This document shows positions 20,796 to 63,174 of a stretch of DNA of 64,000 nucleotides, piece after piece. Source of the DNA: an uncultured Pseudomonadota bacterium (lineage in GTDB: Bacteria > Chloroflexota > UBA5177 > JAJPKF01); contig CAWCYJ010000003.1 in the NCBI GenBank assembly GCA_963799725.1, positions 9,795-73,794 of the forward strand. Direction: 5' to 3'. The translations under genes and the position numbers were made by a program. The notes under the pieces are model-generated. The model had not been told where the DNA came from. It saw nothing but the letters and a program-made list of their open reading frames with translations, and did not search any database. Every line of letters starts with the position of its first letter. Positions within the stretch are counted from its first letter, which is position 1.

Positions 20796-20870
20796 GCAGG
20801 TGTAGTTCAATCATTAGAACGGTCGCCTTCCAGGTGGCAAGTGTGGGTGTAAGTCCCACCGCCTGCTCCA
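20796..20870 (+). tRNA. tRNA-Gly (anticodon UCC) with encoded CCA and non-canonical D- and T-loops
   Basis: The cloverleaf reads GCAGGTG TA GTTC AATCATTA GAAC G GTCGC CTTCCAG GTGGC AAGT GTGGG TGTAAGT CCCAC CGCCTGC T CCA. It has a 7-bp acceptor stem, and U8, A14, A21, U33, U54-A58, G53-C61 and U73 are all present. The D-loop lacks GG, and the T-loop is TGTAAGT instead of TTCRANY. Confidence 0.75.
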
Positions 20871-50597: not shown

Positions 50598-52310
50598 TCA
50601 GCAGTTTGGTGGGTTCGTACAGGCCAGAACCGGCGAGCTGCTGGTACCCGTGCTGGAGCTGCTCGGCGCCTGAGACGTCGAGGGAGAGGTCGCGGGTTGC
50701 TGGGTCGTGGTTGCCGGCTGCTGCGTCGTCGTTGCCGGCTGTTGGGGGACGGTCGCCGGTTGCTGGCTAGTGGTCGCAGGCTGCGTGGTTGCCGGCTGTT
50801 GATAGCCGGTGCTATTCGGCACCTGCGTCGGCGTGGTGTTCAAGGTCGATCCGGTGCTGCTGCTGGTTGCAACCGTACTTGTCGGAGTGGCAAGCGGGTT
50901 CGTCGTCGTGGTGGCAGCAGCTGGAACGGCAACATGCTGCCAAGCCGTCCATGACTGAATATGCATCGGGGTAACAGCACCAAGCCGCCAAGCGTAAGTC
51001 TTTCCCGGAGTCAGTGCCTGATGAACACAACGACCAACGGGCTTCAGGGCAATGGTTGCGGTCTTTGGGATCGTGCGGCGAAGGTGAAGCGTTCCGCCAC
51101 TGATGTAAAGGTGGAAGCTCACGGCAGTCCGGTTAGCGGTCCAGCAGAAGGAAGCTGTACTCGCCTCTGTTGCCGGAAGAGTCGCACCCGGCCGAATAAT
51201 CGCCGGCTTGGGCATTGGAGGCTCAAGCGCGGCCACTAGCTGCGCCGGCTTTGAAGCTTTCTTGGTCTTGCCATAGATCGCTTCAACCGTCCACGTGTAC
51301 CGAGTCCCCGGAACGAGGGCATCCGTCACCTGTAGATTCGGGGCCGACGAGTGGTATGAGTGCCCGCCAATAGAAACGAGGTATGAGCTGACTCCAGGGA
51401 CTGCGTTCCACTGAAGCTGAGCGGAGGCTTTCCCGTTTGTGGAGGCGGCATTGGTTACGACTGAGAGCCCAGTTGGGCTCTGATAAGCGCTTGCCGAACC
51501 CGAGGGCTGCATGCGGTTCATTAACCCAGGCCCCAAGGCGACGCCTGCGATGATGATCAGGCCAGCGACAACGGCGAGTGCGCCCAGCCGGGAGCTCCTC
51601 GCTGCCAGAAAGCCCGAGCGCTTTCCTGTCTTTTTCGGCTCGGCCGCCGCCCGTGCCTGCGGCTTACCGGATAGTCGCTCTGCCAACAGAGCGGATGAAG
51701 TGCGACCGCTTCGGCTAGCTGCCAATGTGACGAGCCAGGCCGCGGCATCGGCATTGGAAAAACTGGCTTGGACCGTCTGTCGAAGCTCTTTGTCTGAGAC
51801 GTGGCGTGCCACCTCGCCGCCCATAAGGACAATCGTTTGGTTCGCCGCAATTCGGGCAGTGGAGACCCGAACGTCGTCATCGCCGGAGGGTGGGCCGGCT
51901 TCGGCCACCATGTTTGTCAAGACCCCATCGGTCGAAAGGTAGGCGGAGGCGCCACCAATGGCTCCGGCAATCACTTCGTTCTTCATGTACACGGCCAGCG
52001 ACACGGAGAGCTCACCCTCTGAGGTCGTTGACCTGACCTGTCCAAGGACTCGCGCGACGTACGCAGCTTCCTCGCCTGGGATGATGGAATCGGCGTCGCC
52101 ACCACGTGCAAAAGCACGCTCGATGGTGTCGTGCGCGGGCTGGATGATCGAGTCGTCTGCGTCGATAATGGCCAAAAGACCATCGACGCGGACAGAGACC
52201 GAATCCCCCGATAATTCGATTACCCGAGCCTCTGATGAGGCGGGACCACCCGGACTTGCCGATTGGCTCGCGACGTCGAACCGAGACCCTTTACCCATCG
52301 TCCAAAGCAT
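50598..52310 (-). CDS. Membrane protein with a cytoplasmic degenerate PP2C-like domain, a TM helix, Fn3-like extracellular domains and a QQPATT repeat tail
   Basis: The ORF is an intact 570 aa. AIGGASAYLSTDGVL and TIVLMGGEVARHVSDKEL align by eye to PP2C VGDSRAYL and LLLCSDGL, but with the Asp residues replaced. The TM reads LGALAVVAGLIIIAGVALG. The tail carries QQPATT repeats. Confidence 0.5.
   Translation of the reverse strand: MLWTMGKGSRFDVASQSASPGGPASSEARVIELSGDSVSVRVDGLLAIIDADDSIIQPAHDTIERAFARGGDADSIIPGEEAAYVARVLGQVRSTTSEGELSVSLAVYMKNEVIAGAIGGASAYLSTDGVLTNMVAEAGPPSGDDDVRVSTARIAANQTIVLMGGEVARHVSDKELRQTVQASFSNADAAAWLVTLAASRSGRTSSALLAERLSGKPQARAAAEPKKTGKRSGFLAARSSRLGALAVVAGLIIIAGVALGPGLMNRMQPSGSASAYQSPTGLSVVTNAASTNGKASAQLQWNAVPGVSSYLVSIGGHSYHSSAPNLQVTDALVPGTRYTWTVEAIYGKTKKASKPAQLVAALEPPMPKPAIIRPGATLPATEASTASFCWTANRTAVSFHLYISGGTLHLRRTIPKTATIALKPVGRCVHQALTPGKTYAWRLGAVTPMHIQSWTAWQHVAVPAAATTTTNPLATPTSTVATSSSTGSTLNTTPTQVPNSTGYQQPATTQPATTSQQPATVPQQPATTTQQPATTTQQPATSPSTSQAPSSSSTGTSSSPVLACTNPPNC
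50690..50812. repeat. Coding tandem repeats (about 18-21 nt units, QQPATT)
   Basis: There are repeated units ggttgccggctgctgcgtcgtc, gttgccggctgttggggg and ggttgccggctgttgatagcc. Confidence 0.7.
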
Positions 52311-52490: not shown

Positions 52491-53267
52491 ATGACTTCAA
52501 ACGCTGAAGAGTCGCGGGATGTGGAGCCCGCAAGGAGCGGGGCAAACATGCTGCAGCCGGGCGGTACGTCTTGGCATCCCGACCGCAGCGATATCTGCGA
52601 CTTGCTCCTGAGGTCTCGCCACGTGGAGACCCGGAATATCTACTACGGTAGCAATGCCTGTTTTCTCCTGGTCCTTGAAGACGAATCGGCGGGTCGAAGC
52701 CTCGCCGTGTACAAACCTGCTCGCGGAGAGTACCCGCTTTGGGACTTCCCCCAGGGGACCCTCTACCGGCGTGAAGTGGCGACCTTTCGGCTGGATGACT
52801 TACTGGGGTGGAAGCTCATTCCTCCCACCGTCGTGGGTCGAGGCAAGTTCGGGCCGGGGTCCATTCAGATCTTCATCGAAGAAGCGCAGGGAGCGGCCGA
52901 TATCCAGGTGCTGGCCCTTCGGAGGATGGCACTTCTGGACTGGATTGTAAACAACGCTGACCGCAAGCCCGATCACGTCCTGGTGACGGAAACCGGTCAT
53001 CTATGGGGAATCGACCACGGGCTCACTTTTCACGTCCAGCCAAAGCTCCGCACGATCCTTTGGCATTTCGCCGGCGAGCCGCTTGAGGCTGAGGAGATCG
53101 CCGACCTTGAACGCTTGAAGGGGCTCTTGCGCGAGCCGGAGGGTAATACCGTTCACGAGCTCCTCGATCCTTTGGAATCTCAAGCTCTGTTGCGCCGCCT
53201 CGATGCTCTGACCTTGGGAGGACGGTTTCCCGATCCTCTCCACAAGGCAGTTCCCTACCGCTGGTAG
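52491..53267 (+). CDS. SCO1664-family protein (PI3/4-kinase-like fold, TIGR03843)
   Basis: The ORF is an intact 258 aa reading AVYKPARGEYPLWDFPQGTLYRREVATFRLDDLLGW...RRMALLDWIVNNADRKPDHVL...GIDHGLTFH...KLRTILWHFAGEPL. Confidence 0.8.
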   Translation: MTSNAEESRDVEPARSGANMLQPGGTSWHPDRSDICDLLLRSRHVETRNIYYGSNACFLLVLEDESAGRSLAVYKPARGEYPLWDFPQGTLYRREVATFRLDDLLGWKLIPPTVVGRGKFGPGSIQIFIEEAQGAADIQVLALRRMALLDWIVNNADRKPDHVLVTETGHLWGIDHGLTFHVQPKLRTILWHFAGEPLEAEEIADLERLKGLLREPEGNTVHELLDPLESQALLRRLDALTLGGRFPDPLHKAVPYRW

Positions 53268-53430: not shown

Positions 53431-53610
53431 ATGGCAACTGCATCCATCGAAACCAAGTGTCCCGAGTGTGATGCGGCGCTCACATTGATGTCGCCGGAGA
53501 AGGGGGAGATCGTCGAGTGTTCTGATTGCGGGGCAGAGCTGGAAGTGCTGTCCACAGAGCCCATTCGACTGGAGCTTGCCCCTGAAGCCGAAGAAGATTG
53601 GGGCGAATAA
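53431..53610 (+). CDS. lysW: Alpha-aminoadipate/glutamate carrier protein LysW
   Basis: ggagggaaga precedes ATG. The product reads [19 protein letters not shown]...[13 protein letters not shown]...[10 protein letters not shown] (zinc ribbon plus EDWGE C-terminus) and is 59 aa. Confidence 0.9.
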
Positions 53611-54450
53611 GCGTAGGGATCTTGCTCTCGCAGGTTCGACTAGAAGAGAAGCTGATTTTCGCCGCCGCCGAACGTGAGGGGCTGGATCTCGTCCGCATCC
53701 ACGACAAGGAGCTGATCCTCCGACTCGATCGCCCGTCCTTTGCCGAGGTTCCGGTCGTGCTCGACCGCAGCTTGGTGCACTCTCGCGCTGAGTACACCTT
53801 ACGCTTTCTGAGCTCGGTGGGAATTCGTGCGATCAACAGCTATCACGCGACGGCCATATGCGACAACAAGTTCCACACATCGATTGCCCTGGAGGAGCAC
53901 AACGTGCCGACGCTCCGGACGGCGATCGCCTTCACTCCTGACTCGGCATTGAAGGCAATTGAGCAGTTTGGATACCCCGTTGTTCTCAAACCGACTGCCG
54001 GGTCCTGGGGAAGGCTGCTGGCCAAGATCAACGATCGGGACGCTGCCGAGGCCCTGCTGGAGCACAAGGAGGTTCTCGGTTCCTACCACCATTCGATCTT
54101 CTATGTGCAGGAGTACGTCAGAAAACCGGGGCGGGATATCCGCGTCTTCGTCGTGGGTCAGGAGGTTGTCTGCGGCTTCCTACCGTCAGAGCGAGCACTG
54201 GATCACGAACGTCGCGCGAGGAGCCGGCACGTCGGTCTGTACACCCACGGATGAAATTACGTCCATCGCCCTAGCCGCGGCTGCGGCGGTAGGCGGAGAA
54301 ATCCTTGGCGTCGATCTCGTCGAGACCGACGAAGGCCTCAAGGTCATCGAGATCAACGTCGGCGCCGAGTTCAAGGGCCTTGTCGATGCCACAGGGGCGG
54401 ACGTGCCAGGCGCCATCGTCCGCTACGTCAAAGCTCAGGCGGCAGCGTAA
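53598..54450 (+). pseudogene. lysX: LysX-type ATP-grasp ligase (RimK family), copy 1, 1 frameshift near 54180
   Basis: The sequence reads [15 protein letters not shown]...[21 protein letters not shown]...[24 protein letters not shown]. After a frame change it continues [16 protein letters not shown]...GGEILGVDLVETDEGLKVIEINVGAEF. Confidence 0.85.
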
Positions 54451-54473: not shown

Positions 54474-54713
54474 ATGGATGAGAACAGTGGGGGTGGCGGC
54501 AGGTCGAACGATAGGCCGGGATGGGGCGACAGAGGATGTGGCTTTCTCGGTTGTCTTGGAACCTTCGTTGTTCTGGCCGTCATATTTGCCGGGTTCGGGG
54601 CCGCCGGTCAGATATGGGCGAGCGTCATCGGAATAGCGATCTCGATCGTCGTCGGCTTCGCCATCGCTGAGATGATGCGGCGAAGGCGCTTGCGACGTCT
54701 CCAGAAAAGTTAG
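54474..54713 (+). CDS. Small 2-TM membrane protein with a Gly-rich N-terminus and an Arg-rich C-terminus
   Basis: The ORF is an intact 79 aa reading GFLGCLGTFVVLAVIFAGFGAAGQIWASVIGIAISIVVGFAIAEMMRRRRLRRLQKS. Confidence 0.5.
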   Translation: MDENSGGGGRSNDRPGWGDRGCGFLGCLGTFVVLAVIFAGFGAAGQIWASVIGIAISIVVGFAIAEMMRRRRLRRLQKS

Positions 54714-54748
54714 GATTCAAACTGACCCGATACCGAAAATCGACAGAT

Positions 54749-54778
54749 TTGACATGGGTGTACCGGGCGGCTTATATT
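54749..54778 (+). promoter_or_regulatory. Sigma-70-type promoter of the T-box leader
   Basis: TTGACA (54749-54754) is followed by an 18-nt spacer and TATATT (54773-54778). Confidence 0.65.
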
Positions 54779-54784
54779 TGCTCC

Positions 54785-55075
54785 AAAGGGAATATTGACT
54801 TCGACGGGAACAGTACACGTTCCCCGGCAGTCTTCGAGAGAGCCGCGTAAGCTGAAAAGCGGCGACTGCAGGAGCGTGGAACAAGGTCCTCGAGTCGCTC
54901 CCCGAACCCCATACGGGTAGTAGGCGGCGCCGGAAATCAGCTTCCGTTATCTCACAGCTGCGGTATACGATCCTCGTTGAGCTCGCGTACCGATCGAGGC
55001 TTCTCTCTAATCGAGGAGCGAATTTGGGTGGTACCACGGTAACCCGCCGTCCCATTGGGACCGGTGGGTTTTTAA
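54785..55075 (+). promoter_or_regulatory. T-box riboswitch leader, proposed Lys (AAG) specifier, controlling hcs and downstream lysine genes
   Basis: The AG bulge AGAGAG lies at 54837-54842. The distal hairpin is CCGC-GUAAGCUGAAAA-GCGG. The S-turn has AGUA opposite GAAC, followed by AAG (54883-54885) then G. The F-box CCGTTA lies at 54944-54949. The T-box reads AATTTGGGTGGTACCACGG (55021-55039). The antiterminator is GGG-[UGGUACC]-ACGG-[UAACCCG]-CCGU-CCC, and it competes with the terminator. Confidence 0.85.
55041..55075 (+). terminator. T-box terminator helix
   Basis: aacccgccgtccc / att / gggaccggtgggtt forms 13 bp with one bulged C, followed by tttttaattt. Confidence 0.8.
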
Positions 55076-55125
55076 TTTGCCGGCCCGTTGGGTACCATCC
55101 ATCGCCTTATTGAGGAGCCGAGACG

Positions 55126-56258
<1,133 letters not shown>

Positions 56259-56375: not shown

Positions 56376-57625
56376 ATGCCAACCCTAGCCGAAGAAATCT
56401 TTAGCCGCAAGCTGAGTCGGGACGTGCAGGCAGGTGAAATCGTCGTGGCGCCTGTCGACTACGTGATGAGCCACGACAACACCACCCCCCTCGCCATCGA
56501 GTCATTCGAGAAGCTCGAGATGCCCATCTGGGACCCGGAACGCGTCATCATCGTCTTCGATCACATGGTGCCCGCTCCCACGCCGCAGGCCGCGGAGCTG
56601 CACACACCGCATCCGAGCCTTCATCGCCGAAGAACGGAATCAAGAAAGTCTTGACGGAAGGCATTTGCCATCAGGTGATGGTGGAGAAGGGATTCATCAC
56701 GCCGGGCGCCATCGTCGTGGGGGCCGATTCCCACTCCTGCACCTATGGCGCGCTGGGGGCCTTCGGCACCGGCATGGGATCGACGGACGCCGCCGTGGTT
56801 TACGCCACCGGACAAGACCTGGTTCCGGGTTCCTGAAACCATTCGAGTCGAGATGTCCGGCGAGCATGGATCCAGGAGTGTTCGCCAAAGACGTCATTCT
56901 GCGTCTCGCCCTGGAGCTTGGACGTTGACGGCGCAACATACCAGGCACTGGAGTTCGGTGGGTCTGCCGTCGAGCGGATGGACCTCGCCGACCGAATGAC
57001 TCTTGCCAACATGACGGTGGAGATGGGCGCCAAAGCCGGGCTGATCGAGCCAAATGAGGAGATCCGTCGGTACGCGGAGAGCGGTCCGGTCATGAGCCGT
57101 TCGAGAGCGTCCATCCCCACGAATCCGGTTTACGTGCGGACGGTGGAGCTTGAACATGTCCGATCTCGAGCCACAGGTAGCCTGCCCATCCGAGGTTTCC
57201 AATGTGGTGGGCGTATCGGAGGTCGAGGGCGAGCACATCGATCAGGTATTCATCGGAACCTGCACAAACGGCAGGCTGGAAGATCTGGAGATCGCCGCGT
57301 CCATCCTGGGCGGCCACAGGTGGCTTCCGACACTCGCTTGGTGGTGACGCCTGCTTCGACCGAGGTCTATCTGGCGGCACTAAGAGCGGGGCCATCGCGG
57401 CTCTTGTGGAGGCGGGCGCCCAGATGACAAACCCCGGATGCGGGCCATGCATCGGCCGGCATCAGGGCGTCTTGGGCGCGGGCGAGAGAGGGCTAACGAC
57501 CCAAAACCGCAATTTCCGGGGGCGCATGGGCCATCCCGACATCGCAGCTCTTCCTGGCGAGTCCGGCCACGGCCGCAGCCACGGCGATAGCCGGTCACAT
57601 CACGGACCCCAGGAGATACATCTAA
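56376..57625 (+). pseudogene. hacA: Homoaconitase / 3-isopropylmalate dehydratase large subunit, at least 5 frameshifts
   Basis: The sequence begins MPTLAEEIFSRKL...[12 protein letters not shown]. Later blocks read [98 protein letters not shown] and NPGCGPCIGRHQGVL. Confidence 0.9.
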
Positions 57626-58113
57626 TGGGACAGAGCCTGGAGTCTTCCGATAACGTCAACACAGACGAGATCATCCCTGGCCGCTACAACGTAACCACCG
57701 ATCGCTCGCAGCTGGCGCGATACTGCCTCTGCGAAGTGCGGCCCGACTTTCCCGAGGGCGTCAAGCCGGGAGATGTCATCGTGGCAGGCCGCAACTTTGG
57801 TTGCGGTTCTCCCGAGAGAACATGCGCCGGTGGCTCTGCAGGCCTGCGGAGTCGAGGCGGTGATCGCGGACTCCTTTGCCCGGATCTTCTACCGAAACGC
57901 CATCAATGTCGGCCTGCCTCTTCTTGATCTGCCCCGAGGCCGTTGCCGCTATAGAAGAGGGTGACGAGGTCACGTTGGATCTCCAAGCCGGCACCATCAG
58001 CAGCCAACGGCACAACATTTCGGTCGGCTCCCATTCCCGCATTCGTCCAGAAGATCGCCGATTCGGGCGGAATACTCGAGTTCATCAAGCAGTACGGCTG
58101 GGAGGGCATTTAG
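57625..58113 (+). pseudogene. hacB: Homoaconitase / isopropylmalate dehydratase small subunit, at least 2 frameshifts
   Basis: A TAATG overlap links it to hacA. The sequence reads NVNTDEIIPGRYN...[63 protein letters not shown] and ILEFIKQYGWEGI then stop. Confidence 0.85.
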
Positions 58114-58968
58114 GTGCGGCTGGCCCTACTCCTCTCCCGGGTTCGCGCCGAGGAGAAGCTGCTGCTCGCAGGAGCTGGAGCGGCGCCGGCGTTGCCCTTC
58201 GATCGAATCGACGACCGGGAGATCGTCTTCGACCTGGAACACATCCCGACCGAATATGACCTGGTGATGGAGCGCTGCATCAATCACTCGCGCGCGTTGT
58301 ACGCGCTGAAGCTATTCAACGATGCAGGCGTGGAAACCGTGAACACGTACCGGGTCGCCGATACCTGCGGCAACAAGATCCTCACTTCGAGCGAGCTTGC
58401 CCGGCACGGCGTTCCCAACCCCAAAACCCTCGTCGCCTTCACCCCGGAGTCGGCACTGGAGGCCATCGAATCCATCGGCTATCCGGCCGTCCTCAAGCCG
58501 GCCATCGGTTCCTGGGGACGGCTGCTCTCCGTGGTGAGCGATCGGTACGCCGCCGAGGCGATTCTCGAGCACAAGGACGTCCTGGGCTCGTTTCATCACT
58601 CCATCTTCTATATCCAGGAATTCGTCGCCAAGCCGGGTAGGGACATCCGCAGCTTCGTGATCGGCGATCGAACCATCGCCGCCATCTATCGGTACTCCGA
58701 CCACTGGATCACCAACACGGCTCGAGGCGGAAGGGCTGAGGGATGCCCGATCACCGATGAGCTTGATGAGATCTCCGCAAAGGCCGCGCGAGCCGTCGGC
58801 GGAGGAATCGTTGCCGTGGACCTGATGGAGACGGAGCGAGGGCTCTTGGTGACTGAGGTCAATTACACCATGGAGTTTCGCAACAGCATCGACACCACCG
58901 GGGTCGACATCCCGGGGAAGATGATCGATTACGTCCTGGAACGAGCTGAAGAGGCTGCTGCCGCGTGA
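58114..58968 (+). CDS. LysX/ArgX-type ATP-grasp ligase (RimK family), copy 2, intact
   Basis: The 284-aa product reads [16 protein letters not shown]...[21 protein letters not shown]...[24 protein letters not shown]...[15 protein letters not shown]...[18 protein letters not shown]. It is roughly half identical by eye to copy 1. Confidence 0.85.
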
Positions 58969-60024
58969 CAGACGAAGAGGCGGTCAAGCTCCTTCGCCGC
59001 CTGGTCGCGGTTCCAAGTCTGACCGGGGAGGAGTCGCCTGCGACCGCCTTCCTCGGCGACGAGATGCGCCGCCGGGACTTCGACGTGACGGTAGATGCTG
59101 CAGGGAATGCCATCGGAGTTCGGCAGGGACGGCCTGGCGGACCGACGCTCATGTTTTTGGGTCATATCGATACGGTGCCGGGAAGCATCGCGGTGCGAGT
59201 GGAGGATGGGCTCCTCTATGGCAGAGGAACCGTCGACGCCAAGGGTCCGCTGGCATGCGCAGTGGCAGCGGCCGCAAGGGCGAACGTCAAGGAAGCGACG
59301 ATCAAAGTCGTGGCCGCCGTGGGGGAGGAAGGGCCGTCCCATGGAGCGAGACATTTGCTCGAAGGTCCGAAGCCCGGATGGGCTCGTCATCGGCGAGCCG
59401 GGTGGCTGGGACTCGATCGTGCTTGGGTACAAGGGAAGCATGCGGGCCGAGATCCGGTTGCAGCAGGCCGTTGGCCACAGCGCAGGTGCCGTACCCGGCG
59501 TTTGCGACACGGCGATTGATGCTTGGATTCGAGTTCGCGAAAGTTGTAGGCAGCTTAGCCGGGGCGATGCCGTCTTCGACACCCTCTCACCGACCCTACT
59601 TGGCCTGGCATCAGGGTCAGACGGCATGGACGAGTGGTCCGTGATTAAGGCAGCGTTTCGGCTGCCCCCAGGCCTGGACGTTGAACAGATGAGGGCGTCG
59701 ATCCAAGAGGCAGTCCACCCCGGGACCATCACGTTCGCGGAGGCGGACGAGGCATTCCGCGCCCCAAGAACCACATCTCTGGTTACAAGCTTCGTTCGGG
59801 CCCTGAGAGCGGGAGGTGCTGTTCCCCGGTTCAAGGTGAAGACCGGAACGTCCGACATGAATGTCGTGGCTCCGGTTTGGAAGTGTCCCACCGTCGCCTA
59901 CGGTCCGGGTGATTCCTCCCTGGACCATACTCCCAACGAGCACATCGACCTCCAGGAGTATCTTCGCTCCGTGAGGATTCTCACGCAGGTCTTCGAGGAA
60001 TGGGGGCAGAGTCGATCATGCTAG
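58965..60024 (+). pseudogene. lysK: [LysW]-lysine/ornithine hydrolase (M20 family, LysK/ArgE-like), 1 frameshift near 59375
   Basis: The sequence reads LLRRLVAVPSLTGEE...LMFLGHIDTVPG...LYGRGTVDAKG...AVGEEGPSHGARHLLEG. It then continues LVIGEPGGWDSIVLGYKGSMRAEIRL...TGTSDMNVV...GPGDSSLDHTPNEHI. Confidence 0.85.
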
Positions 60025-60853
60025 TCGTGAAGATTGGCGGTAGTGCCGGAATCGACTTGGAGGCGTTTCTCACCGATATCGCCTCCCTTGACGAGCCGCT
60101 AATCCTGGTACACGGAGCGAACGCCGAGCTGGATGCGCTGACCCGCAGGCTCGGCACCGAGCCGACACTCGTGACCTCAGCGGACGGCCAGGTCTCTCGA
60201 TTCACCGATGCGACCACCATGGACCTGTTTCTGATGGTTTATGCCGGAAAGGTCAACAAACGGATCGTCGAAGGACTGACCAGACGAGGCCGGAAGGCCG
60301 TCGGGCTCTGCGGCATGGATGGTGGTATCGTAAAGGCCCGTCGAAAGGATGCCATCCGCATCGTCGAAAACGGGAAGCGCGCGGGTGCTGCGGGGAGATT
60401 TCGCCGGAAGTATCGAGAGCATCGATCCGTTCCTGCTGCACTCCCTGCTCGACGCCGGCTACATTCCGGTTCTATGCCCTCCGGCGGTCAGTGACGAGGG
60501 AGACGCGCTCAACGTCGATGGCGACAAGATGGCCATGGAGCTGGCAGTGGCCGTAGGGGCTGAAAAGCTGCTGATCTTCTCGAACACCGCAGGGCTGCTT
60601 CGCGATCCTGCAGATCCGCTCGAGCCTCATCTCAAGCGGTGGATTGGAGGAGATGGGCGATCTGTTGGAGTACGCCCAAGGTCGAATGAAGAAGAAGATT
60701 CTGGCCTCGAAGGCAGCCCTGCAGCGCGGCATCGGAGAGGTGATTCTGGCCGACGCGCGCGTGGCCGAGCCGGTTCGAGCAGCGCTGAACGGCGCGGGTA
60801 CTCACCTTGCCGTGGCTCCCGTTAGGAAGGAATTGGAGGGATCTCTATCATGA
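60018..60853 (+). pseudogene. lysZ: [LysW]-aminoadipate/glutamate kinase (acetylglutamate-kinase family), 2 frameshifts
   Basis: The sequence reads MLVVKIGGSAGIDLEAF...LILVHGANAELD...GKVNKRIVEGL. It then continues VLRGDFAGSIESIDPFLLHSLLDAGYIPVLCPPAVSDEGDALNVDGDKMA and ends MKKKILASKAALQRGIGEVILADAR. Confidence 0.85.
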
Positions 60854-62071
60854 CGACTGCACTTCCGGAAGACCGACCGAAGGAAACCTCGGAGCAAGGG
60901 TCTCACCGCTTTCAGGATCAAGGGGAGATTCACCTCTACAACAAGCGGGAGATTCAGCTGGTTCGGGGCGAGGGCGTCTACCTTTGGGATGACATGGACC
61001 GCCGCTACCTCGACGCCATGAGCAACTACGGCGTCAACGTTCTCGGGCACAAACATCCTGCCGTCGACGCGGCCATCAGGTCTCAGCTCGACAGGCTCAT
61101 GAGCTGCCATCAGAGCTTCTATAACGACGCCAGGGAGGAGTTCGAGAAGACCTTCCTCGCACAGCTACCTCCCGAGCTGCAGCGCGCTGTCTTATGCCAA
61201 CTCGGGCGCCGAGTCGATCGAGGCGGCATTGAAGTACGCTCGGGCTGCCACGGGCCGGCGGAAGATCGTTGCCACCCAGCATGGCTACCACGGACGAACC
61301 ATGGGAGCCCTTTCCATTACCTCGGGTGAGAAGCATCAAGCGCCATTCCGTCCACTTCTTGCGGATTGTGAAGCGGTTGCCTTTGACGATCTCGAGGCCC
61401 TGGAGGCACAGATGCCGGATGCTTCCGCGGTAATCTTGGAGCCGATCCAGGGCGAGGCAGGCGTTAACGTGCCATCCGTCGAGTACCTCAAGGGCGTAAG
61501 GCAGCTTTGTGATCGTCACGCGGCTCTGATGATCCTTGACGAAGTTCAGACAGGAATGGGTAGGACAGGAAGACTGTTCGCGTTCGAACATAGCGGTGTG
61601 ATCCCCGATATCCTGGCAGTATCCAAGGGCATTGCCAACGGCCTTCCCATGGGTGTCACGGTGGTACGGGAAGACATCGCGAGCCGGATCGAGACGGGTG
61701 CGCACGGAAGCACGTTCGCCGGCAATCCTTTGGCCTGCGCGGCGGCAAGCGCGACGGTACAAGCCCTAACCAGCGGCCGGCTTCTGGATGACGTGGCCGC
61801 CAATGGAGCCGTCTTCATTGGAGATCTGAAGGGCTTGAATCAGCGAATGATTCGCGAGGTAAGGGGCGTTGGCTATATGGTGGCTCTCGAGCTGCGTACC
61901 CGCGTGACTCCCTACCTTCGCGCTCTGCAGGAACGGGGTGTTCTGGCCCTGCCGGCAGGCGGCCGCTCCATGCGCCTTCTCCCGCCTCTCATTGCCGAGC
62001 CGCAGCACCTCCGAACGATTGTCGAAACCATCGACACGGTCTTGGCAAGATGCTCAAGGCAGCGCGGCTGA
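60850..62071 (+). pseudogene. lysJ: [LysW]-aminoadipate semialdehyde / acetylornithine aminotransferase (class III), 1 frameshift near 61195
   Basis: An ATGA overlap links it to the upstream gene. The sequence reads VRGEGVYLWDDMDRRYLDAMSNYGVNVLGHKHP. It then continues NSGAESIEAALKYAR...HGYHGRTMGALS...LILDEVQTGMGRTGRLFAFEHSGVIPDILAVSKGIANG. Confidence 0.9.
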
Positions 62072-62093
62072 TCGGCAAGTTAGGGGATCGGGA

Positions 62094-63174
<1,081 letters not shown>

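Follow-up and report, generated by a model that had tools for sequence, protein, structure and literature searches.

The L-box is the regulator to which lysine biosynthesis is classically ascribed, and the 64-kb stretch of Chloroflexota DNA analysed here (the window) raises the question of which regulatory RNA lies in front of its lysine operon and what that RNA might sense. The identity of the operon itself is clear. On the forward strand, the gene for homocitrate synthase (hcs, TTG start) occupies positions 55126-56258, and the stitched protein (HCS) matches TIGR02146 at 469.9 bits against a cut-off of 413.55. It is followed at 56376-63174, on the same strand, by hacA, hacB, lysX, lysK, lysZ, lysJ and lysY, which were recognised by NCBIfam matches to the three-frame translation. 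Amongst these, lysX (58114-58968, forward strand) is intact and scores 340.9 bits with TIGR02144, where the cut-off is 275.6; the other NCBIfam assignments in the operon are [LysW]-lysine hydrolase, [LysW]-aminoadipate kinase, LysJ and ArgC/LysY. An initial annotation, made by reading the sequence, had described the locus as an alpha-aminoadipate (AAA) lysine cluster of the form hcs-hac-lysXKZJY, and the NCBIfam matches bear this out.

The element in front of hcs is, on the evidence of its sequence, a genuine T-box leader. In an E-value scan of positions 54600-55200, the T-box model RF00230 matches the forward strand at 54792-55057 with 83.9 bits and E=9.8e-19 over model positions 1-219, which is a significant full-length match. 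Eight orthologous hcs leaders match the same model at E-values of 1e-10 to 1e-18 (58-88 bits), and chance is excluded by the E-value of the window leader together with the matches of all nine orthologous leaders. The gathering threshold of RF00230 is, however, 93 bits in the Rfam release used, an operational cut-off rather than a structural feature, and neither the window leader nor any of the eight orthologues reaches it. A scan of the whole window at Rfam gathering thresholds returned tRNA only and no T-box, because the score of the leader lies below that limit. The RF00230 search that the initial annotation had proposed as a check therefore gave a match at the level of the E-value, but not at the gathering level. 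Taking all 15 Chloroflexota Lys T-boxes of this study, a single one (L395, 105.9 bits) passes the gathering score, while the other 14 lie at 58-88 bits, with E-values of 1e-10 to 1e-18; the threshold thus misses almost all of these G+C-rich T-boxes, and the regulon that they may form would escape standard annotation.

The anatomy of the leader can be followed from the promoter to the ribosome-binding site, all on the forward strand. A sigma-70-type promoter, TTGACA-18-TATATT (54749-54778), agrees with the consensus at 11 of 12 positions in a consensus scan, and a -35 element TTGAC(A/T) is found upstream of 8/9 orthologous leaders. Stem I (54798-54895) was delineated by the RF00230 alignment and by RNAalifold with pair counts on the nine leaders; folded alone, it has z = -2.9. 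The Rfam alignment contains the Stem I features of a T-box, namely the GA motif at the base, the AGUA/GAA S-turn, the AG bulge and the conserved distal loop, and the helices are supported by covariation, with compensatory changes in five of the six pairs of helix 3 (54816-21 / 54873-78) amongst the nine leaders. As read from the sequence, the AGUA of the S-turn (54812-15) lies opposite GAA (54879-81), the helix GCAGUC/GACUGC is formed by 54827-32 and 54864-69, the AG bulge is AGAGAG (54837-42), and the 12-nt distal loop GUAAGCUGAAAA (54847-58) is closed by a GCCGC/GCGGC helix. The RF00230 alignment places Stem II, the Stem IIA/B region and the F-box at 54896-54998, with the F-box CCGUUA at 54944-49, and a CAGCU/AGCUG helix of the Stem II-IIA/B region (helix 6) again shows compensatory changes in the nine leaders. 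Stem III, GCUUCUC / GAGGAGC (54999-55019), has 98% of its cells paired and 5/7 compensatory pairs.

The 3' part of the leader carries the two alternative structures. The T-box sequence AAUUUGGGUGGUACCACGG (55021-39) was identified from the sequence and the RF00230 alignment, and the same alignment defines an antiterminator at 55025-54 consisting of UGGG, the bulge UGGUACC, ACGGU-loop-GCCGU and CCCA. The bulge (55029-35) has 7 nt and starts with UGGN, here UGGU, the predicted partner of the tRNA 3' ACCA. Amongst the orthologues the T-box sequence is near-invariant as GGUGGUACCACGG, the sole exception being L203 with GGUGGUAUCACGG, and UGGU is kept in all. Overlapping the antiterminator, and sharing its 3' half, is an intrinsic terminator of 13 pairs (55041-55070, with a U-rich tail to 55078) found by ViennaRNA and by a terminator scan. 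It has one bulged C (55061), which is absent from the orthologues, and a tail of UUU AA UUU; in the orthologous leaders its helix is retained and shows compensatory changes (alignment columns 279-307). ViennaRNA gives the terminator -24 kcal/mol and the antiterminator stretch alone -9.5, so that the leader holds a mutually exclusive and more stable terminator with its U tract, with the asymmetry expected of a T-box. A ribosome-binding site, GAGGAG (55112-17), follows about 40 nt past the terminator and lies outside both alternative helices. The elements named in the initial annotation all lie where it had placed them: the promoter, Stem I with its AG bulge and S-turn, the F-box and, further 3', the T-box sequence with the UGGUACC bulge and the 13-bp terminator. 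Its description of a T-box with all hallmarks is upheld by the full-length RF00230 match and by covariation over the nine orthologous leaders.

Several genes of the region lie on the other side of this promoter. An intact lysW (53432-53610), whose product ends in EDWGE, precedes a second gene of the LysX/RimK family (the two within 53432-54429) that is approximately 50% identical to the lysX of the operon and has one frameshift near 54175. Since both lysW and the lysX paralogue are upstream of the promoter, they are outside the control of the T-box; lysW is likewise found just upstream of the leader at locus L002. The interval from the lysX paralogue to the T-box promoter holds an ORF of 79 aa (54474-54713), which has a hydrophobic core and a tail rich in Arg.

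The fold rests on a comparison of orthologues. The stitched HCS protein was searched against genome and metagenome collections, which gave 160 loci, and a T-box core preceded hcs only at loci whose HCS shares 76% identity or more with that of the window. Nine distinct hcs leaders were obtained in this way, from the window, L001, L002, L003 (its 5' half on L196), L004, L076, L155, L202 and L203. In their alignment the Rfam-type structure with the antiterminator has 92.7% of its cells paired, and 19/44 pairs are compensatory; these values of pairing and compensation were reached by none of 500 shuffles, and slid controls were 35-52% paired. RNAalifold independently recovers Stem I, elements of Stem II, Stem III and the terminator, with 24 of its 61 predicted pairs compensatory, and places GAA-N-AAG-R on the 3' side of the specifier loop. 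The alignment of homologous leaders suggested in the initial annotation thus supports the fold by covariation and finds AAG conserved in every leader. A protein-coding reading of the minus strand (ORF 54717-55055) was considered for the same region and rejected, as the lengths of the indels amongst the orthologues are not divisible by three and the variation tracks base pairs, not codons.

Two further observations concern these loci. At L076 (3700-3836) about 130 extra nt (about 190 alignment columns if the flanks are counted) are inserted in the hairpin loop between the F-box and Stem III; this insertion may be a mobile element or an additional domain, or else an artefact of assembly. In addition, the hcs loci of several MAGs labelled Proteobacteria, Acidobacteriota, Deinococcales or Phycisphaerales (L002, L076, L005, L010 and L035), two of which (L002 and L076) have T-box leaders, group with Chloroflexota, which suggests that these assemblies are mislabelled or mis-binned.

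The position of the specifier codon and its conservation are likewise well established. The codon is AAG (lysine) at 54883-54885 of the forward strand, as given by the register of the Rfam alignment and by conservation. GAA-C (54879-82) stands before it, and a purine (G 54886) and then the helix UCCU (54887-90) come after it, so that a codon followed by a purine (AAG-G, 54883-86) stands at the 3' end of the specifier loop. The Rfam alignment sets GAA-C-AAG-G of the window on the consensus GAA-a-uuc-a, that is, the S-turn, one spacer base, the codon and a purine. All nine hcs leaders read GAA-[C/A]-AAG-[G/A], flush against the lower Stem I helix; the AAG itself is constant, with C or A before it and G or A after it. 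The same codon is present in all six Lys T-boxes that were found in Thermomicrobiales, and in other T-boxes with the shared distal Stem I motif the same register reads ordinary specifiers, namely AUC, AUG, CUC, UGG, AAC, GUC and UAC. The AAG specifier that the initial annotation had derived from a manual fold is therefore borne out by the Rfam register and by its invariance, and neither of the findings that would have spoken against it has emerged: none of the nine leaders carries a specifier other than lysine, and RNAalifold keeps AAG-R in the specifier loop rather than supporting a fold with another codon.

A lysine codon conserved amongst orthologues is thus joined to downstream genes of lysine metabolism (hcs, hacAB, lysXKZJY). 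Bacterial tRNA-Lys has the discriminator A73, which is also common to most tRNAs. The match of anticodon and discriminator to the leader rests on this general knowledge, because no tRNA-Lys gene occurs in the 64-kb window, where the only tRNA is tRNA-Gly(UCC) at 20796-20870, or amongst the 11 tRNAs of the retrieved hcs/T-box loci. Some caution comes from the rarity of the assignment: lysine is amongst the rarest T-box specificities, and codons with 3'-A are preferred over those with 3'-G in more than 85% of two-codon families (TBDB preprint). AAG is therefore a minority lysine specifier in the terms of TBDB, which counts against the assignment.

Considering the fold, the codon and the genes together, the leader is very probably a canonical transcriptional T-box that is specific for tRNA-Lys and controls hcs-hacAB-lysXKZJY. 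Binding of the tRNA, the identity of the isoacceptor, its A73 discriminator and antitermination are predictions from the sequence, and the proposed course of events is as follows. Transcription would start about 7 nt past the -10 box, and the specifier AAG (54883-85) would pair with the anticodon of tRNA-Lys, perfectly with CUU and by wobble with UUU, while the platform formed by the AG bulge and the distal loop would stack on the tRNA elbow. If the tRNA is uncharged, its 3' ACCA could pair with UGGU (55029-32) and stabilise the weak antiterminator, and RNA polymerase would read through into hcs. If it is charged, the pairing of ACCA with UGGU would be blocked, and the 13-bp terminator (55041-70 and its U tail) would form and stop transcription about 50 nt before hcs. 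A drop in the charging of tRNA-Lys would therefore be expected to induce lysine synthesis.

Two other ways of reading the leader accept that it is a T-box and differ on what it senses or on the step that it controls. The codon could be CAA (Gln) directly after the GAA of the S-turn, in which case tRNA-Gln would be sensed. In the window GAA is indeed followed by CAA-G, with a purine after CAA, and in some T-boxes the codon directly abuts GAA; our register caller found a one-base spacer in most of the T-boxes tested, and a spacer of 0 in several CUC and UGG leaders. However, the Gln register is not conserved, as the same three positions read AAA in 4/9 leaders (L003/L196, L155, L202 and L203); in all six Thermomicrobiales leaders they also read AAA, which is still lysine. 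The Rfam alignment sets the codon on AAG and not on CAA, the genes behind the leader make lysine, and the orthologous operons carry lysine riboswitches, so that sensing of tRNA-Gln appears extremely improbable. Control of translation by sequestration of the ribosome-binding site, as in actinobacterial ileS T-boxes, deserves a little more weight and is still very unlikely here. Translational T-boxes do exist outside Firmicutes (TBDB preprint), but the window leader has a G+C-rich 13-bp hairpin with a U tail overlapping the antiterminator, its ribosome-binding site is in neither of the alternative helices, and its complete set of Stems I, II and III is that of the transcriptional type. Control of transcription, and not of translation, is favoured by the terminator, its U tail and a ribosome-binding site left free about 40 nt downstream.

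A different difficulty is posed by the genes behind the leader, which are heavily frameshifted in this copy of the operon, so that the T-box may here be switching a dead operon. Counted against L001, hcs has about 13 frameshifting indels; hacA likewise has about 13, and hacB, lysK, lysZ, lysJ and lysY are also broken; the rate is about 13 frameshifts per kb (roughly 1 per 90 nt) everywhere in the operon except in lysX. That the leader is a relic in this genome, in front of genes decayed to pseudogenes, is suggested by this density of frameshifts and by its confinement, as intact genes lie just upstream (50598-52310 and 52491-53267) and intact long ORFs are present elsewhere in the window. In the middle of the operon, lysX is intact too. 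The kind of damage, however, fits decay less well. Identity to L001 is 89% for the stitched HCS and 86% for the intact LysX, with DNA identity of about 80% for both, and thus the frameshifted genes show no excess of substitutions. Moreover, +1 insertions predominate amongst the indels, which runs against the deletion bias that is usual in bacteria. The leader itself scores as well on RF00230 as those of intact orthologues. Frameshifts without extra substitutions favour a local error of sequence or assembly over decay; on these sequence comparisons such an error is probably their source, and a relic is unlikely, although less so than either of the two readings above.

With the transcriptional tRNA-Lys T-box as the preferred reading, its distribution beyond the window becomes of interest. 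In 185,579 species genomes, the distal Stem I motif combined with the pattern GAA-M-AAG-R occurs in only 12 stretches, all of them in Chloroflexota; an earlier and looser DNA pattern for the specifier region was unspecific, with mostly Pseudomonas coding sequence amongst the matches listed. Apart from hcs leaders, these stretches are six Thermomicrobiales T-boxes with an AAG specifier, which match RF00230 at E-values of 1e-12 to 1e-22. Three of these precede dapA-dapB (L381, L394 and L292) and three a lysX-like gene (L334, L376 and L395). Together with the nine leaders before hcs, the same specifier is therefore associated with two lysine pathways. The helix under the codon is GAGG/CCUC in Thermomicrobiales and GGGA/UCCY in the hcs clade, a compensatory difference that leaves AAG-R flush against it; a joint MAFFT alignment of the two groups misplaced the 5' strand of Stem I, and the register across clades was therefore taken from a helix check of each sequence and from the Rfam alignments. 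In the dapA cases a short ORF apparently lies between the terminator and dapA.

The initial annotation had also contrasted the T-box with the L-box as the classical solution, and this contrast emerges more strongly than had been claimed, because neighbouring hcs lineages carry the lysine riboswitch RF00168 at the equivalent position. It is found directly upstream of hcs, at 83-109 bits, at eight loci (L005:3697-3882, L006:1959-2145, L007:3710-3895, L204:2132-2317, L205-L207:2210-2395 and L264:2212-2397), and regulation of orthologous operons is in this way linked to lysine. In a neighbour-joining tree of HCS, built without bootstrap, the T-box clade is monophyletic, and its nearest neighbours are the L-box-bearing genes and L010. 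Neither L010 nor the scanned hcs loci of Anaerolineae type showed a known RNA element at the gathering threshold. A survey of lysine riboswitches does not mention the association of RF00168 with hcs (PMC5584792).

The T-box family, its mechanism and the existence of lysine specificity are already known, and the understanding of how a T-box works is unchanged by this leader. What appears to be undescribed is a T-box in front of an AAA operon, a small Lys T-box regulon in Chloroflexota, and the alternation with the L-box on orthologous operons. In the searchable full-text literature, no description of a T-box before an AAA lysine operon was found, and nothing relevant on T-boxes in connection with dapA in lysine biosynthesis or with lysX/lysW. 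We somewhat favour the wider reading that Chloroflexota, in the clade of the window and in Thermomicrobiales, possess a tRNA-Lys T-box regulon with the rare AAG specifier, spanning the AAA hcs operon, a lysX-like gene and dapA-dapB of the DAP pathway, which at hcs would constitute a natural swap with the lysine riboswitch of neighbouring lineages (tRNA charging in place of free lysine), and which has been missed by standard annotation and left undescribed. Such a regulon would extend T-box control to the alpha-aminoadipate lysine pathway and would mean that lysine biosynthesis is not exclusive to L-boxes or leader peptides. Orthologous hcs operons with either a T-box or an L-box may also enable a direct comparison of sensing by tRNA charging with sensing of the free amino acid.

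Amongst the known systems, leader-peptide attenuation of the AAA lysine cluster of Thermus thermophilus was reportedly described by Tsubouchi and colleagues in 2005. Like the window T-box, that attenuator is said to lie upstream of the same pathway and, as is predicted for the T-box, to respond to the supply of charged tRNA-Lys, but it is said to do so by ribosome stalling on the lysine codons of a short ORF, with no direct tRNA binding, T-box sequence or Stem I. For lysK of B. cereus, a T-box that responds to tRNA-Lys has been validated experimentally; such T-boxes are very rare, and tRNA-Asn partly cross-induces the lysK element (PMC2916919). The lysK T-box of B. cereus and B. thuringiensis shares with the window leader the RNA family, a lysine-codon specifier and the logic of terminator and antiterminator (PMC2916919). 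It belongs, however, to Firmicutes and controls lysyl-tRNA synthetase, whereas the window leader, with its AAG specifier, is from Chloroflexota and precedes a biosynthetic operon of eight genes. T-boxes of biosynthetic operons, such as trp, leu/ilv, his, ser, met and cys in Firmicutes and trpE and leuA in Chloroflexi and delta-proteobacteria (PMC2494555), have the same architecture, and in them the uncharged cognate tRNA induces the synthesis of its own amino acid; an AAA lysine case was not found amongst them in the searchable literature. The L-box (RF00168) performs the same regulatory task, and in neighbouring lineages it occupies the same position before hcs, but its fold is unrelated and it senses free lysine, whereas the T-box of the window is predicted to sense the charging of tRNA-Lys.
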